Positions 1 through 31,247 of a DNA stretch of 46,713 bases are shown in pieces. Each line of letters starts with the position of its first letter. Position 1 is the stretch's first letter. Origin of the DNA: a virus (Duplodnaviria; Heunggongvirae; Uroviricota; Caudoviricetes); IMG/VR virus record IMGVR_UViG_2563366972_000004. One strand, written 5' to 3'. The notes below the pieces were generated by a model. It was given only the letters and a program-made list of their open reading frames with translations. It did not search any database and had not been told where the DNA came from. The position numbers were made by a program, and so were the translations under genes.

Positions 1-1164
1 TTACGCCTTCTTTATATCCTCCATAATTCCAGAGTGGGACATATTTGGGACATTATCACCAAAAATGTCGTCTATTTTCCTCGCATGCTCTGTCAAATGA
101 TTAGGCGCAAGGTGAGCATACCTACGAACCATTTCTGTGGACTCCCATCCGCCCATTTCCTGAAGCACTGATAATGGGACGCCTGACTGAATCAGCCAGC
201 TTGCCCAGGTGTGTCTGAGGTCATGGAAACGGAAATCTTCAATTCCTGCACGACGACAAGCTGATAGCCATGATGTCTTGCTGTCGATGCGCATCTTCCT
301 GACCGCAGGCGTTGATGTTCCATCTGCTCGCTTAGCCGCCTTGGTATGTACAAACACCCATTTGTGATGCTTGCCTATTTGATCACGCAACACTTTACAG
401 GCGGTATCGTTCAGCGCCACACCAATGGCGCGGTTTGATTTGCTCTCTTCTGGATTCACCCAGGCAACTCGTCGCTGCATGTCGATTTGTTGCCATTCCA
501 GATTTATGATGTTCGACTTTCTCAGACCAGTTGCCAGCGCAAACTTGACGACAGATTTCAGTGGTTCGGGGCACTCATCAATAAGGCGTTTTGCTTCCTC
601 CTTTTCCAGCCATCTGACTCGCTTGTTTCTGACCGCTGGTATCTTGATGACAGGCGCTTTTTCCAGCCACTTCCAGTCGCGTTCTGCAGCACGGAGAATG
701 GCCTTTATCATGGCAAGATGCTTTGCCTTTGTCTGAGTTGATACTGGCTTTGGTTCATAAACAGGCGGTTCTTTACCTTTCCTGATGGCGGCCTGAACTT
801 TCTGTTTCCATATTTCTTTCGTCTTTCTGTTATGCATTCTGCTTACAGCAGAGTAAATCTTTGCCTCCGAGATATCTTTAAGCCTTATACCCTCAAAATG
901 TTCAAGCCAGAACTCAATCCGGCTTTTATCTGAATCGAGAGATTTTTTATCAGCTTTTTCCTCAAGCCATCTTAGGCAGGCCTCTTCAAAAGTGACATCA
1001 GGTAAATCCCCTAGCTTTTCTACTCGCCAGAGTTCTGCTTTTCGCTTGTCGTGCAACTCCTGAGCTTGCCGCTTGTCCTTTGTGCCAAGAGATTCCTTAA
1101 TTCGTTTCCCGCCCGGGAGCGAATACGAGGCATACCATATTTCATTTCTGCGGAAGAGTGACAT
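1..1164 (-). CDS. int: Tyrosine integrase, P22-type (387 aa)
   Basis: Full ORF; N-terminus [18 protein letters not shown] and C-terminal HDLRHT...RYAH catalytic region match recalled P22-type integrases. Stop codon at 1-3. Confidence 0.9.
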
Positions 1165-1391: not shown

Positions 1392-1641
1392 GGTTACCTC
1401 TGCTTTTTGAACGCATGTCACGTAACTTCTTAATGTGTTCTGCCGTTTCGATCTCTTCTGCTATCCGATCTGCATCAGCTTTATTCACAGGTTCAAAGTC
1501 ATGATTAAAGCGGAACATGCTGGCGATACATGTTCTGCCTTTTCGGATGTAGTGAACTTTGTTGTGGGTAGAACGCAGGATTTTGCAGGGAGTGCCGTGG
1601 TGGTCGACGTACCAGGTGTTAGGAAAAATGATTCTGAACAT
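1363..1641 (-). CDS. Hypothetical early protein (about 92 aa, MFRIIFPNTWYVDHHG...)
   Basis: ORF in track; internal ATG at 1641 preceded by GGGG; 3' end overlaps xis start. Not recognised. Confidence 0.4.
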   Translation of the reverse strand: MFRIIFPNTWYVDHHGTPCKILRSTHNKVHYIRKGRTCIASMFRFNHDFEPVNKADADRIAEEIETAEHIKKLRDMRSKSRGNHGIIQPHTR

Positions 1642-1688
1642 TTTTACACCCCAGTTGGACGATGTTGAAATTTGCTGCTTTGAGGCCA

Positions 1689-1907
1689 TCACAGTCCCCA
1701 TTGTTTGTTCTTAAGTTCGATCTCCTCCTGGCAACTTGCACAAGTCCGACAACCCTGAACAGCCAGGCGTCTTCGCTCATCTATCGGATCGCCACACTCA
1801 CAACAATGAGTTGCGGATACAGTCTGGTAGTTCAGACGACGCATTTTTATTGCTGTATTGCGCTGTAATTCTTCGATTTCTGATGCTGAATCAATGATGT
1901 CTGCCAT
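1689..1907 (-). CDS. TraR/DksA-family C4 zinc-finger protein (72 aa)
   Basis: CxxC...CxxC motif (CCECGDPIDERRRLAVQGCRTCASC) in a 72-aa protein; common small gene in lambdoid early-left regions. Confidence 0.55.
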   Translation of the reverse strand: MADIIDSASEIEELQRNTAIKMRRLNYQTVSATHCCECGDPIDERRRLAVQGCRTCASCQEEIELKNKQWGL

Positions 1908-1957
1908 CTTTCATTAATCCCTGAATTGTTGGTTAATACGCTTGAGGGTAAATGCGA

Positions 1958-1984
1958 ATAATAAAAAAGGAGCCTGTAGCTCCC
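1958..1984 (-). terminator. Candidate intrinsic terminator (minus strand)
   Basis: On the minus strand, GGAGC-tacag-GCTCC stem-loop followed by TTTTTTATTAT, about 20 nt after the stop of the upstream gene. Confidence 0.4.
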
Positions 1985-2005
1985 TGATGATTTTGCTTTT
2001 CATAT

Positions 2006-2221
2006 TCATCGTTCCTTAAAGACGCCGTTCAACATGCCGATCGCCAGGCTTAAATGAGTCGGTGTGAATCCCATCAGCGTTACCGTTTCGCGGTGCTTCT
2101 TTAGTACGCTACGGCAAATGTCATCGACGTTTTTATCCGGAAACTGCTGTCTGGCTTTTTTGATTTCAGAATTAGCCTGACGGGCAATGCTGCGAAGGGC
2201 GTTTTCTTGCTGAGGTGTCAC
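2006..2221 (-). CDS. Hypothetical protein (about 71 aa if GTG start at 2221; track ORF extends to 2287)
   Basis: ORF in track; likely GTG start overlapping (GTGA) the stop of the upstream 27-codon ORF. Not recognised. Confidence 0.35.
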   Translation of the reverse strand: MTPQQENALRSIARQANSEIKKARQQFPDKNVDDICRSVLKKHRETVTLMGFTPTHLSLAIGMLNGVFKER

Positions 2222-2301
2222 TGAACAAGCCCCATGCCGGCAAGCATAAGCACACAGAATATGAAGCCCGCTGCCAGAAAAATGCATTCAGTGGTTGTCA
2301 T
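2218..2301 (-). CDS. Small hydrophobic peptide, 27 aa (MTTTECIFLAAGFIFCVLMLAGMGLVQ)
   Basis: Hand-translated; not in the ORF track (under 60 aa). ATG overlaps the stop of the upstream ORF (ATGA) and its stop overlaps a GTG of the next ORF (GTGA). Confidence 0.35.
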   Translation of the reverse strand: MTTTECIFLAAGFIFCVLMLAGMGLVQ

Positions 2302-2489
2302 ACCTGGTCTCTCTCATCTGCTTCTGCTTTCGCCACCATCATTTCCAGCTTTTGTGAAAGGGATGTGGCTAACGTATGAAATTCTTCGTCTGTTTCTACT
2401 GGTATTGGCACAAACCTGACTCCAATTTGAGCAAGGCTATGTGCCATCTCAATACTCGTTCTTAACTCAACAGGAGATGCTTTGTGCAA
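2298..2489 (-). CDS. Hypothetical small early protein (63 aa in track; may start at internal MAHSLAQIG, 2447)
   Basis: ORF in track adjacent to exo, in the position of the lambda small-orf cluster. Start uncertain. Confidence 0.4.
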   Translation of the reverse strand: MHKASPVELRTSIEMAHSLAQIGVRFVPIPVETDEEFHTLATSLSQKLEMMVAKAEADERDQV

Positions 2490-2650
2490 ACCGCCTCCCG
2501 TTTATTATTTATCTTCTCAGCCAGCCGCTGTGCTTTCAGTGGATTTCTGATAACAGAAAGGCCGGGAAATACCCAGCCTCGCTTTGTAACGGAGTAGATG
2601 AAAGTGATCGCGCCTACCCGGATATTATCGTGAGGATGCGTCATCGCCAT
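2462..2650 (-). CDS. Hypothetical small protein (62 aa)
   Basis: ORF in track; start overlaps the exo stop. Overlaps the next ORF if that one uses its longest start. Confidence 0.3.
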
Positions 2651-3321
2651 TGCTCCCCAAATACAAAACCAATTTCAGCCAGTGCCTCGTCCATTTTTTC
2701 GATGAACTCCGGCACCATCTCGTCAAAACTCGCCATGTACTTTTCATTCCGCTCAATCACGACATAATGCAGGCCTTCACGCTTCATGCGCGGGTCATAG
2801 TTGGCAAAGTACCAGGCATCTTTTCGCGTCACCCACATGCTGTACTGCACCTGGGCCATGTAAGCCGATTTTATTGCCTCGAAACCACCGAGCCGGAATT
2901 TCATGAAATCCCGGGAGGTAAACGGGCATTTCAGTTCAAGGCCGTTGCCGTCACTGCATAAACCATCGGGAGAGCAGGCGGTGCGCATACTTTCGTCGCG
3001 ATAGATGATCGGGGATTCAGTAATATTCACGCCGGAAGTGAATTCAAACAGGGTTCTGGCGTCGTTCTCGTACTGTTTTCCCCAGGCCAGCGCCTTAGCA
3101 TTAACTTCCGGAGCAACACCGGTGCAAACCTCAGCCAGCAGGGTGTGGAAGTAGGACATTTTCATGTCAGGCCACTTCTTTCCTGAGCGGGGCTTTGCTA
3201 TCACGTTGTGAACTTCTGAAGCGGTGATGACGCCGAGCCGTAATTTGTGCCACGCATCATCCCCCTGTTCGACAGCTCTCACGTCGATCCCGGTACGCTG
3301 CAGGATAATGTCCGGTGTCAT
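2641..3321 (-). CDS. exo: Lambda exonuclease (Red alpha), 226 aa
   Basis: [37 protein letters not shown]... matches recalled lambda Exo essentially end to end. Confidence 0.95.
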
Positions 3322-4103
3322 GCTGCCACCTTCTGCTCAGTGGCTTTCTGTTTCAGGAATCCAAGAGCTTTCACTGCTTCGGCCTGTGTCAGTTCTGACG
3401 ATGCGCGAATGTCGCGGCGAAATATCTGGGAACAGAGCGGCAATAAGTCGTCATCCCATGTTTTATCCAGGGCGATCAGCAGAGTGTTAATCTCCTGCAT
3501 GGTTTCATCGTTAACCGGAGTGATGTCGCGTTCCGGCTGACGTTCCGCAGTGTATGCAGTATTTTCGACAATGCGCTCAGCTTCATCCTTGTCATAGATA
3601 CCAGCAAATCCGAAGGCCAGACGGGCACACTGAATCATGGCTTTATGCCGTAACATTCGTTTGGGATGCGACTGCCACGGTCCGGTGATTTCTCTGCCTT
3701 CGCGGGTTTTGAATGGTTCGCGGCGGCATTCATCCATCCATTCGGTAACGCAGATCGGATGATTACGGTCCTTGCGGTAAATCCGGCATGTACATGATTC
3801 ATTGTCCTGCTCAAAGTCCATGCCATCAAACTGCTGGTTTTCATTGATGATGCGGGACCAGCCATCAACGCCCACCACCGGAACGATGCCGTTCTGCTTA
3901 TCAGGGAAGGCGTAAATTTCTTTCGTCCACGGATTAAGGCCGTACTGGTTGGCGACGATCAACAATGCGATGAACTGCGCATCGCTGGCATCACCTTTAA
4001 ATGCCGTCTGACGAAGAGTGGTGATCAGTTCCTGTGGGTCGACAGAATCCATGCCGACACGTTCAGCCAGCTTCCCAGCCAGCGTTGCGAGTGCAGTACT
4101 CAT
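3318..4103 (-). CDS. bet: Red beta single-strand annealing protein, 261 aa
   Basis: [37 protein letters not shown]... matches recalled lambda Bet; overlaps exo start (ATGA). Confidence 0.95.
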
Positions 4104-4108
4104 TCGTT

Positions 4109-4405
4109 TTATACCTCTGAATCAATATCAACCTGATGGTGAGCAATGGTTTCAACCATGTACCGGATGTGTTCCGCCATGCGCTCCTGAAACTCAACAT
4201 CGTCATCAAATGCACGGGTAATGGCTTTTTTGCTGGCCCCGTGGCGTTGCAAATGATCGATGCATAGCGATTCAAACAGGTGCTGGGGCAGGCCTTTTTC
4301 CATGTCGTCTGCCAGTTCTGCCTCTTTCTCTTCATGGGCGATCTGCTGGTAGTGACGCGCCCAGCTCTGAGCCTCAAGACGATCCTGAATGTAATAAGCG
4401 TTCAT
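4109..4405 (-). CDS. gam: Gam RecBCD inhibitor, short form (98 aa)
   Basis: [21 protein letters not shown]...[10 protein letters not shown] matches recalled lambda GamS. Confidence 0.92.
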
Positions 4406-30276: not shown

Positions 30277-30855
30277 ATGGCCATAAAAGGTCTTGAGCAG
30301 GCCATTGAAAACCTCAGCCGTATCAGCAAAACGGCGGTGCCTGGTGCCGCCGCAATGGCCATTAACCGCGTTGCTTCATCCGCGATATCGCAGTCGGCGT
30401 CACAGGTTGCCCGTGAGACAAAGGTACGCCGGAAACTGGTAAAGGAAAGGGCCAGGCTGAAAAGGGCCACGGTCAAAAATCCGCAGGCCAGAATCAAGGT
30501 TAACCGGGGGGATTTGCCCGTAATAAAGCTGGGTAACGCGCGGATTGTCCTGTCCCGACGCAGGCGTCGTAAAAAGGGGCAGCGTTCAGCCCTGAAAGGT
30601 GGCGGCAGCGTGCTTGTGGTGGGAAACCGTCGTATTCCCGGCGCGTTTATTCAGCAACTGAAAAATGGCCGCTGGCATGTCATGCAGCGTGTGGCCGGGA
30701 AAAACCGTTACCCCATTGATGTGGTGAAAATCCCGATGGCGGTGCCGCTGACCACGGCGTTTAAACAGAATATTGAGCGGATACGGCGTGAGCGTCTTCC
30801 GAAAGAGCTGGGCTATGCGCTGCAGCATCAACTGAGGATGGTAATAAAGCGATGA
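30277..30855 (+). CDS. Z: Tail completion protein Z (192 aa)
   Basis: Lambda gene order and size. Confidence 0.9.
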   Translation: MAIKGLEQAIENLSRISKTAVPGAAAMAINRVASSAISQSASQVARETKVRRKLVKERARLKRATVKNPQARIKVNRGDLPVIKLGNARIVLSRRRRRKKGQRSALKGGGSVLVVGNRRIPGAFIQQLKNGRWHVMQRVAGKNRYPIDVVKIPMAVPLTTAFKQNIERIRRERLPKELGYALQHQLRMVIKR

Positions 30856-31247
30856 AACATACTGAACTCCGTGCAGCCGTACTGGATGCACTGGAGAAGC
30901 ATGACACCGGGGCGACGTTTTTTGATGGTCGCCCCGCTGTTTTTGATGAGGCGGATTTTCCGGCAGTTGCCGTTTATCTCACCGGCGCTGAATACACGGG
31001 CGAAGAGCTGGACAGCGATACCTGGCAGGCGGAACTGCATATCGAAGTTTTCCTGCCTGCTCAGGTGCCGGATTCAGAGCTGGATGCGTGGATGGAGTCC
31101 CGGATTTATCCGGTGATGAGCGATATCCCGGCACTGTCAGATTTGATCACCAGTATGGTGGCCAGTGGCTATGACTACCGGCGCGACGATGATGCGGGCC
31201 TGTGGAGTTCTGCCGATCTGACTTATGTCATAACCTATGAAATGTGA
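30852..31247 (+). CDS. U: Tail terminator U (131 aa)
   Basis: Lambda gene order and size. Confidence 0.9.

Follow-up and report, generated by a model that had tools for sequence, protein, structure and literature searches.

A class of small single-helix inner-membrane proteins has reportedly been described in Escherichia coli by Hemm et al. in 2008. YohP with 27 amino acids (aa), KdpF (29 aa) and AcrZ (49 aa) are examples of small inner-membrane proteins, which often act by binding larger membrane proteins. The peptides of type I toxin systems include TisB, ShoB, DinQ (27 aa), Ibs and Hok, and the small products of the pL operon of phage lambda include Kil (47 aa), CIII (54 aa) and Ral; the targets known for the host-directed products of this operon comprise FtsZ, FtsH and RNA polymerase. 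In addition, phage and bacterial operons contain leader or bridge open reading frames (ORFs) that couple neighbouring genes by termination-reinitiation at AUGA or GUGA overlaps. Orf73, which is TraR-like, has been presented as a further small host-directed product of the lambda pL operon (PMC9239242). Here we analyse a 27-codon ORF located at 2218..2301 on the minus strand of a viral sequence of 46,713 nucleotides (nt) (IMG/VR record IMGVR_UViG_2563366972_000004), the whole of which is referred to as the window. On our best reading of the sequence, this small ORF is a genuine overlooked protein-coding gene of the lambdoid exo-xis block. Its sequence appears to combine the features of a hydrophobic-helix small protein with those of a coupling ORF, and to belong to no described family.

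The ORF reads from 2301 to 2218 (ATG ACA ACC ACT GAA TGC ... GTT CAG TGA) and encodes, in 27 codons followed by a stop, the product MTTTECIFLAAGFIFCVLMLAGMGLVQ. The original prediction of a small hydrophobic ORF at this place was reproduced by minus-strand translation and proved accurate in every detail. As it had claimed, the ATG (2301-2299) overlaps the stop (TGA 2300-2298) of the upstream 63-aa DUF1382/orf63 homologue in an ATGA at 2298..2301, and the stop (TGA 2220-2218) overlaps a GTG (2221-2219) in a GTGA at 2218..2221. The prediction took this GTG as the probable start of the downstream ORF, an orf61 homologue, and it is indeed the real start: the Prokaryotic Genome Annotation Pipeline (PGAP) begins the gene there, so do distant homologues, and of the loci compared, 274 have ATG at this position, 67 have GTG and 1 has another codon. 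The structural reading of a location in the early-left (pL) operon with 4-nt overlaps on both sides was upheld, and the observation of a doubly overlapped 27-codon ORF is confirmed. Geometry alone is weak evidence, because both ends of the ORF are set by its flanking genes and the chance of an open frame bridging them is about 1 in 9 (1/3 for the gap length modulo three, multiplied by the 0.34 of shuffles that have no internal stop). What goes beyond chance is the hydrophobicity, the conservation, and an excess of synonymous polymorphism confined to this one of the three sense frames.

The peptide contains no lysine, arginine or histidine and carries an acidic E5, and T occupies codon position 2 in 14 of its 27 codons. 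Its grand average of hydropathicity (GRAVY) is 1.6-1.7, and a value of 1.7 was matched by only 0.3% of open shuffles (p=0.003). The segment I7-V26 is predicted to form a single hydrophobic helix, whose length suffices for it to cross the membrane or lie embedded in it, as in the class of small inner-membrane proteins. We used the Hessa apparent insertion free energy as a predictor of membrane insertion. For I7-V26 it was -2.8 kcal/mol with G22, the rarer allele present in this window, and approximately 0 with D22, the majority allele, which retains an uncharged 16-residue core (C6-A21).

The predicted product thus resembles the small single-helix inner-membrane proteins of E. coli in having 27 aa, in consisting mostly of one hydrophobic helix and in having been overlooked by gene callers. 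Unlike those proteins, it is phage-borne, is found in Escherichia lambdoid prophages only, has no basic residues and only acidic flanks, has a membrane location that is predicted, and has no sequence similarity to any family searched. Searches with the peptide against PHROGs, Pfam and NCBIfam gave chance-level matches only, and a phmmer search of PDB gave no match. Its gene shares operon and timing with Kil, CIII, Ral and Orf73, which are small, are not needed for plaque formation and influence host physiology or the choice between lysis and lysogeny; these are soluble or amphipathic and have known targets, whereas the product of the small ORF would be a bare hydrophobic helix. Like the type I toxins, it is a hydrophobic peptide of less than 50 aa that could perturb the membrane, but its ORF lies inside a polycistronic operon with 4-nt overlaps and shows no homology to them. 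An antisense or divergent small RNA with its own promoter, the mark of type I toxins, was not found: promoter-like sites on the plus strand in 1600..2800 were limited to 1933-1962 and 2741-2768, which is the number expected by chance, and Rfam gave no match. With coupling bridge ORFs the small ORF shares the ATGA/GTGA overlaps on both sides, a weak downstream Shine-Dalgarno (SD) sequence and a position on the downstream gene's ancestral initiation region; it differs from a pure bridge ORF in that its amino acids appear constrained and are strongly hydrophobic. Finally, the annotated lambda orf61, Phi24B vb_24B_7c (93 aa) and PHROG 303 occupy the same DNA, contain the small ORF wholly and have published phenotypes from mutations there. 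They are in a different frame, and the N-terminal part annotated for them is an artefact that evolves neutrally and is unstructured. The peptide is not a member of the Orf61 family (PHROG 303; M-x5-NALR...IG-LNG), since its codons lie in another frame and before the conserved N-terminus, and remote members have no counterpart to it.

In order to describe conservation we used 359 loci taken from IMG/VR, metagenomes and genomes with probes that lie outside the small ORF or are neutral to it, of which 343 cover the ORF. The original prediction had proposed conservation of the frame in close relatives as a check; the 27-codon frame was unbroken in 334 of these 343 independent-source loci. Breaks were rare and consisted of Q27stop (5 loci), ATG>ATA (2), stop>GGA with read-through (1) and a 1-nt deletion (1). 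Further losses of the ORF were a 14-nt deletion in an Escherichia sp. prophage (L007) and a prophage remnant (L351) that is broken inside the ORF at 2248. In the selection test, each allele per site was counted as one event against a kappa-weighted neutral expectation (synonymous fraction 0.26), and variants present on at least two distinct haplotypes were called recurrent. The frame of the small ORF is denoted frame A, and that of the ATG at 2287, the start of the 93-aa Orf61, frame B. In frame A we counted 15 synonymous (S) and 17 nonsynonymous (N) events over all variants, with a ratio of nonsynonymous to synonymous polymorphism (pN/pS) of 0.40 (p=0.009), and S=11 and N=6 over recurrent variants (pN/pS 0.19, p=0.0009). 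The values for orf61 on the same counts were similar (0.54 for all and 0.29 for recurrent variants), and orf63, the protein of which has a nuclear magnetic resonance structure, was under weaker constraint than frame A (0.65-0.86). Frame B gave 1.05 (all) and 1.77 (recurrent), and the third sense frame, C, gave 1.2-1.4. Recurrent variants on codon positions 1, 2 and 3 of frame A numbered 4, 3 and 13 (p=0.01), and the three substitutions of a 14-locus sublineage were every one synonymous in this frame. The frequent replacements were mostly conservative for a helix (F8L, A21V, V26A and T3A); D22G, the commonest, and E5K change the charge. Decay of the block was also observed. One locus has an IS3-family insertion sequence (IS) in orf61 with the small ORF intact upstream (L228, 300-1520), and an IS66-family element lies next to the small ORF or interrupts it in a further E. 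coli prophage (L363, 1-1494).

The small ORF is preceded by a purine-rich, SD-like sequence, GAGAGAGA (2308..2315, minus strand; 7-14 nt 5' of the ATG), with a duplex energy of -5.6 kcal/mol with the 16S 3' end. Its start forms the ATGA overlap with orf63 in 311 loci. In 31 other loci a Dam-type methyltransferase takes the place of orf63 and ends in the same ATGA, homology to the window beginning exactly at 2301 (A of ATG). In this Dam context the SD before the small ORF is GGGAGG with a 4-nt spacer (-10.3 kcal/mol). Position 2301 is thus a recurrent mosaic breakpoint at a gene start, as is about 2487-2493. On the other side, the A/GTGA overlap with orf61 was kept in 341 of 342 loci. The start and stop overlaps are therefore conserved across relatives and contexts, as in a translationally coupled gene. 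The SD of orf61 itself is only GGGG (-4.7 kcal/mol), and this weakness hints that orf61 translation may depend on translation of the small ORF. No SD was found upstream of the frame-B ATG at 2287. We also considered an RNA element in the interval and dropped this reading: the fold of 2180..2330 was less stable than shuffles (z=+1.85) with no occluding structure, an Rfam search of the interval gave no match, and the scan for terminators and promoters found neither between orf63 and orf61. We likewise rejected the idea that a -1 frameshift joins the peptide to Orf61, since GUU CAG UGA has no slippery heptamer.

The status of the small ORF is tied to the question of which orf61 is real. In the literature Orf61 has 93 aa in Shiga toxin (Stx) phages, starting at the ATG at the 2287 position, and is a 'truncated' protein of 61 aa in lambda (PMC8614690, PMC6213356). 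We judge the real orf61 to be the 71-aa protein that starts at 2221 (2006..2221, minus strand; VTPQQENALRSIAR...), which is helical and homeodomain-like, and the 93-aa and lambda 61-aa annotations to be artefacts. A HMMER scan of 1.84 billion representatives gave remote orf61 relatives of 32-48% identity and 69-78 aa that match the 71-aa form end to end and share its M-x5-NALR N-terminus. The remote homologues, 19 in number, measure 69-78 aa with one exception (overall range 69-89 aa); they start at the 2221 position, and none has a frame-B extension. This start is also the curated one in phage records 434B and ST2-8624. In an E. coli lineage with a 344-member protein cluster (P0036; one locus read, L226), orf61 directly follows an unrelated 250-aa gene; it is preceded by a GAGG SD of its own and starts with an ATG at the 2221 position. 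The 22-codon 'N-terminal extension' of the 93-aa Orf61, MHFSGSGLHILCAYACRHGACS (2222..2287, minus strand), is out of frame with the small ORF, and AlphaFold2 gave it low predicted local distance difference test (pLDDT) values: in the 93-aa form, residues 1-20 scored 42-57 and the core 77-93. The authors of the model in PMC8614690 left out residues 1-23. A Zn-site reading of the extension (H-x2-C-x3-C-x-H-x2-C) was dropped, the histidines being changed to Y in several lineages. Apparently 'distant' orf61 matches with 51-53% identity proved to be copies with a frameshift and not relatives. In lambda and its spike-in copies there is a specific +1 A in an A-run (window 2156-2161, minus strand) that is absent from every other haplotype and cuts the real orf61 to about 29 aa. 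The lambda RefSeq 'orf61' (NP_040613, 30839..31024) is chimeric, with the small ORF read out of frame and a shifted tail added to it; it is doubly wrong, because frame B is read across the small ORF and the +1 A shifts the real orf61 out of frame. Many RefSeq records name the 71-aa orf61 homologue 'cell division protein ZapA'. The sole support for this is a sub-threshold Pfam ZapA match (16 bits against a cut-off of 23.8, E=0.014), and the name looks like an over-annotation.

The relation of the small ORF to the start of orf61 can be followed in outgroups. In the nearest of these, the orf61 homologue comes straight after a DNA methylase; the identity is 65% in L364 and 45-48% in the genome contigs L365 and L366 and in L368. 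The joint in three of these four loci (L364, L365 and L366) reads ...ACGGAGGC(T/C)GC-ATGA..., the methylases ending in TEAA and a stop. The E. coli loci with the Dam context have the same joint, CGGGAGGCTGC-ATGACA, which is followed by the small ORF, and a second ATGACA about 80 nt further on starts orf61. The simplest reading is that an insertion of about 80 nt, which is not a multiple of three, occurred after the ancestral ATGACA, and that the new frame stops in the regenerated start. Because the insertion would have come after the ancestral ATGACA, the small ORF would hold the ancestral SD and ATG of orf61. In L007 the 14-nt deletion lies in the insertion (80-14=66), so that the coupled ATG is in frame with orf61 and the small ORF is abolished; the peptide can therefore be lost. 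We also observed that four non-homologous upstream genes (three DNA methylase families and one DGQHR/DndB-like gene) all end in (T/R)EAA and a stop through a ACGGAGGCNGC-ATGA joint (L364 405-422; L365 and L366 1187-1204; L166, with the Dam context; L007 1420-1438). Since this joint is common to all, the last codons of each upstream gene come from the ribosome-binding site of the downstream module, and the joint is a conserved mosaic linker.

Several published 'orf61' mutations fall within the small ORF. The lambda 'orf61' frameshift of the Wegrzyn laboratory was made with a primer that reads CTTCATATTCTGTGTG and TTATGCTTGCCGACAT on the two sides of its marked position (PMC4195576), and the C that it removes opens codon 18 of the small ORF, at a point before the real orf61 ATG is reached. 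With this frameshift, phage development was delayed after induction with mitomycin C or H2O2 (PMC4195576). The recombineering arms of the lambda delta-orf61 mutant (PMC4699033) keep codons 1-12 of the small ORF and delete codons 13-27 together with roughly the first thirteen codons of orf61, and the Phi24B vb_24B_7c deletion loses codons 6-27. Because these mutations lie inside the small ORF and the real orf61 of lambda is already truncated by the +1 A, the lambda phenotypes may be, at least partly, candidate effects of the predicted peptide, which we infer weakly. In the lambda ribosome profiling, footprints from the small ORF would have been credited to the annotated orf61.

We consider it fairly probable that the small ORF encodes a translated small inner-membrane peptide and also gates orf61 translation. 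The ORF would share the N-antiterminated pL transcript with exo, orf60a, orf63, orf61 and orf73. To judge from the sequence, initiation would take place by reinitiation at the ATGA after orf63 termination, or through the upstream purine-rich SD (GGGAGG where Dam is upstream). The hydropathy suggests a 27-residue peptide with one hydrophobic helix that would insert in the inner membrane. Termination at the UGA inside the A/GUGA could then pass ribosomes to the weak-SD 71-aa orf61, so that the small ORF would set the orf61 translation rate as well. The original prediction had in mind that small membrane peptides of phage early-left operons are often host-toxic or modulatory, and such a role is plausible here; a pro-lytic contribution is weakly suggested. 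In a second role, which does not exclude the first, the small ORF, which sits on the ancestral ribosome-binding site of orf61, may chiefly gate its translation. A more specific proposal, which we hold as doubtful, is that the recently born 27-aa peptide, and not Orf61, is the effector of the pro-lytic 'orf61' phenotypes of lambda, acting from the inner membrane on a host target for lysis-lysogeny or the exo-xis 'Bin' replication block, with FtsH/HflKC and the membrane potential as candidates.

Several points weigh against a coding gene with a membrane product. All carriers are at least about 90% identical, and the selection signal consists of 17-32 polymorphic events. An antisense frame that shares wobble positions comes close to frame A when recurrent variants are counted (S=8, N=6). 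Natural knock-outs exist, namely ATG>ATA, the 1-nt deletion, the IS insertions and the L007 deletion, by which the ATG is joined to orf61 in frame. In the majority allele D22 lies within the hydrophobic stretch (insertion free energy approximately 0), the peptide has no positive flank to fix its topology, and the SD of the small ORF is of moderate strength where orf63 precedes it, as is common. Polarity on orf61/orf73, or the scar itself, could explain the mutant phenotypes. In addition, more distant orf61 loci and one E. coli lineage (L226) lack the small ORF, which is therefore dispensable for orf61.

In a rival explanation only the act of translation matters: a functionless peptide is made while the ORF hands a fraction of ribosomes to orf61, as a relay or upstream ORF. 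In its favour are the stop/start overlap kept in 341 of 342 loci, the weak orf61 SD (-4.7 kcal/mol) with the ancestral GGAGG held by the small ORF in the Dam context, the origin of the ORF from about 80 nt (a length that three does not divide) inserted where orf61 starts, and the fact that orf61 works without the small ORF in other lineages. However, it predicts constraint on the integrity of the ORF and not on its amino acids, whereas pN/pS is 0.2-0.4 and core replacements are conservative (though D22G and E5K alter charge), and it leaves the extreme hydrophobicity (p=0.003) unexplained; we regard it as unlikely. Another rival is an untranslated spacer, in which the 76 nt between orf63 and orf61 are open in one frame by chance. 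This is quite improbable in our view: the three-base periodicity of polymorphism, the synonymous excess and the hydrophobicity all argue for a coding frame, and the interval showed no RNA family match, no stable fold (z=+1.85) and neither terminator nor promoter, even if an open bridge is expected about 1 time in 9 with fixed ends, the region is so young (>90% identical everywhere) that conservation alone says little, and several natural disruptions are found.

Two other readings assign the signal to a different frame. That the 93-aa Orf61 from ATG 2287 is real, as in the Phi24B annotation and the exo-xis literature, and the 27-codon ORF a spurious overlap, is very improbable. This form is used in many phage records and in PHROG 303 and was modelled in PMC8614690, and in L007 the 14-nt deletion does put the coupled ATG in frame B and produces a 93-aa fusion, which is the only support for this frame. 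On the other hand, pN/pS of the extension is 1.0-1.8, with three different H>Y changes that hit all three histidine codons, one each; ATG 2287 has no SD; the low pLDDT and the exclusion of residues 1-23 in PMC8614690 concern exactly this part; and the 19 remote homologues, the ATG of the L226 lineage after a different gene, and the ATG or GTG codon in 341 of 342 loci all place the start at 2221. Antisense ORFs of 54 aa (2215..2379, plus strand) and 61 aa (2234..2419, plus strand) are open across the small ORF and orf63 in the window and in lambda, and the wobble positions of the latter coincide with those of the small ORF. It is extremely improbable that the selection signal is due to this 61-aa ORF, which is open in lambda too and has a pN/pS of 0.24 on recurrent variants (S=8, N=6). 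Within this antisense ORF, all antisense-synonymous variants are also sense-synonymous, while four sense-synonymous variants are antisense replacements, one of which destroys the antisense ATG in 5 loci. With all variants counted it is not significant (p=0.19), its overlap with orf63 is unconstrained, and neither an SD nor a nearby plus-strand promoter-like site was found for it.

The small ORF is widespread and rarely annotated. A 201-nt query spanning it (2150..2350) had matches of 90-100% identity in 3,214 of 5,426 complete E. coli genomes. A tblastn search of 50,697 phage records found the peptide in 176, including lambda, 434, 933W, VT2-Sakai, Phi24B and DE3; the matches belong to the same family only, at 92.6% identity or more, plus one chance match. 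The lambda copy (NC_001416, 30925..31008) has D22 in place of G22 and lies wholly inside the annotated orf61 (30839..31024) in another frame. At a nearly identical E. coli locus (100% over 2150..2350), PGAP places a coding sequence of 71 aa from GTG 2221 (WP_000188870.1) and leaves 2222..2297 blank. The claim that the ORF is unannotated held for lambda RefSeq, PGAP and the hand-curated phage records 434B and ST2-8624. It did not hold for a few older GenBank E. coli records (KNY58316.1) and one UniRef entry (A0A0A2SGE8), where the ORF is listed as 'hypothetical protein'. The peptide sequence was not found in the searchable full-text literature, which for orf2311 and orf2313 gave nothing besides PMC8614690. 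Assemblies under names such as Shewanella, Pseudomonas, Bradyrhizobium, Kitasatospora and Oceanobacillus, among others, contained full-length lambda (contigs of about 48.4 kb, 100% identical; L008-L021). These copies almost certainly come from sequencing spike-ins that contaminate species-representative genomes, and because the matches were mostly of this kind, the genome-contig scan gave no phylogenetic depth.

The window is a lambdoid prophage. Reading leftward on the minus strand, int is at 1..1164, exo at 2641..3321, bet at 3318..4103 and gam at 4109..4405. Within the exo-xis block the minus-strand order is orf60a (2462..2650), orf63 (2298..2489), the small ORF, orf61, a 31-codon ORF (1914..2009) and TraR/orf73 (1689..1907). 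From established lambda biology, we take the region of exo, orf60a, orf63, orf61 and orf73 to be the N-antiterminated pL early-left transcript. The orf63 homologue (DUF1382, 63 aa) is the upstream coupling partner of the small ORF. Its start codon (2487-2489, minus strand) is TTG in the window as opposed to ATG in 51 of 52 haplotypes of a first sample, and a strong GGGAGG SD is retained. The 31-codon ORF, with product MNMKSKIIRELQAPFLLFAFTLKRINQQFRD, overlaps the orf61 stop with its ATG (ATGA 2006-2009), so that the series of 4-nt overlaps goes on, and a terminator-like hairpin (1967-1985) lies within it. Lambda has this ORF too, in conserved form, and its product had no family match in PHROG, Pfam and NCBIfam. 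It is probably the 31-aa 'orf2313' cited from ribosome profiling. According to the account in PMC8614690, lambda ribosome profiling found a 31-aa and a 7-aa ORF in this region and 'confirmed' orf61.

Lambda is the reference temperate phage, and the exo-xis block is common to Shiga-toxin phages and occurs in over half of the complete E. coli genomes. Should the 27-codon gene be real, orf61 is wrongly annotated in the references for lambda (61 aa) as well as for Stx phages (93 aa), and a non-native N-terminus was part of the structural models and of the insoluble over-expression constructs made from the 93-aa form. The published 'orf61' phenotypes (delayed induction, more lysogeny, higher host survival and poorer adsorption of Phi24B) would then need splitting between a membrane peptide and a 71-aa helical protein. 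Small phage membrane peptides are a familiar category, but a hidden selected gene in the lambda pL operon, together with a mis-attributed orf61, would surprise specialists. If true, the locus would also be a clean, datable case of a small gene born by insertion into the translation-initiation region of another gene.

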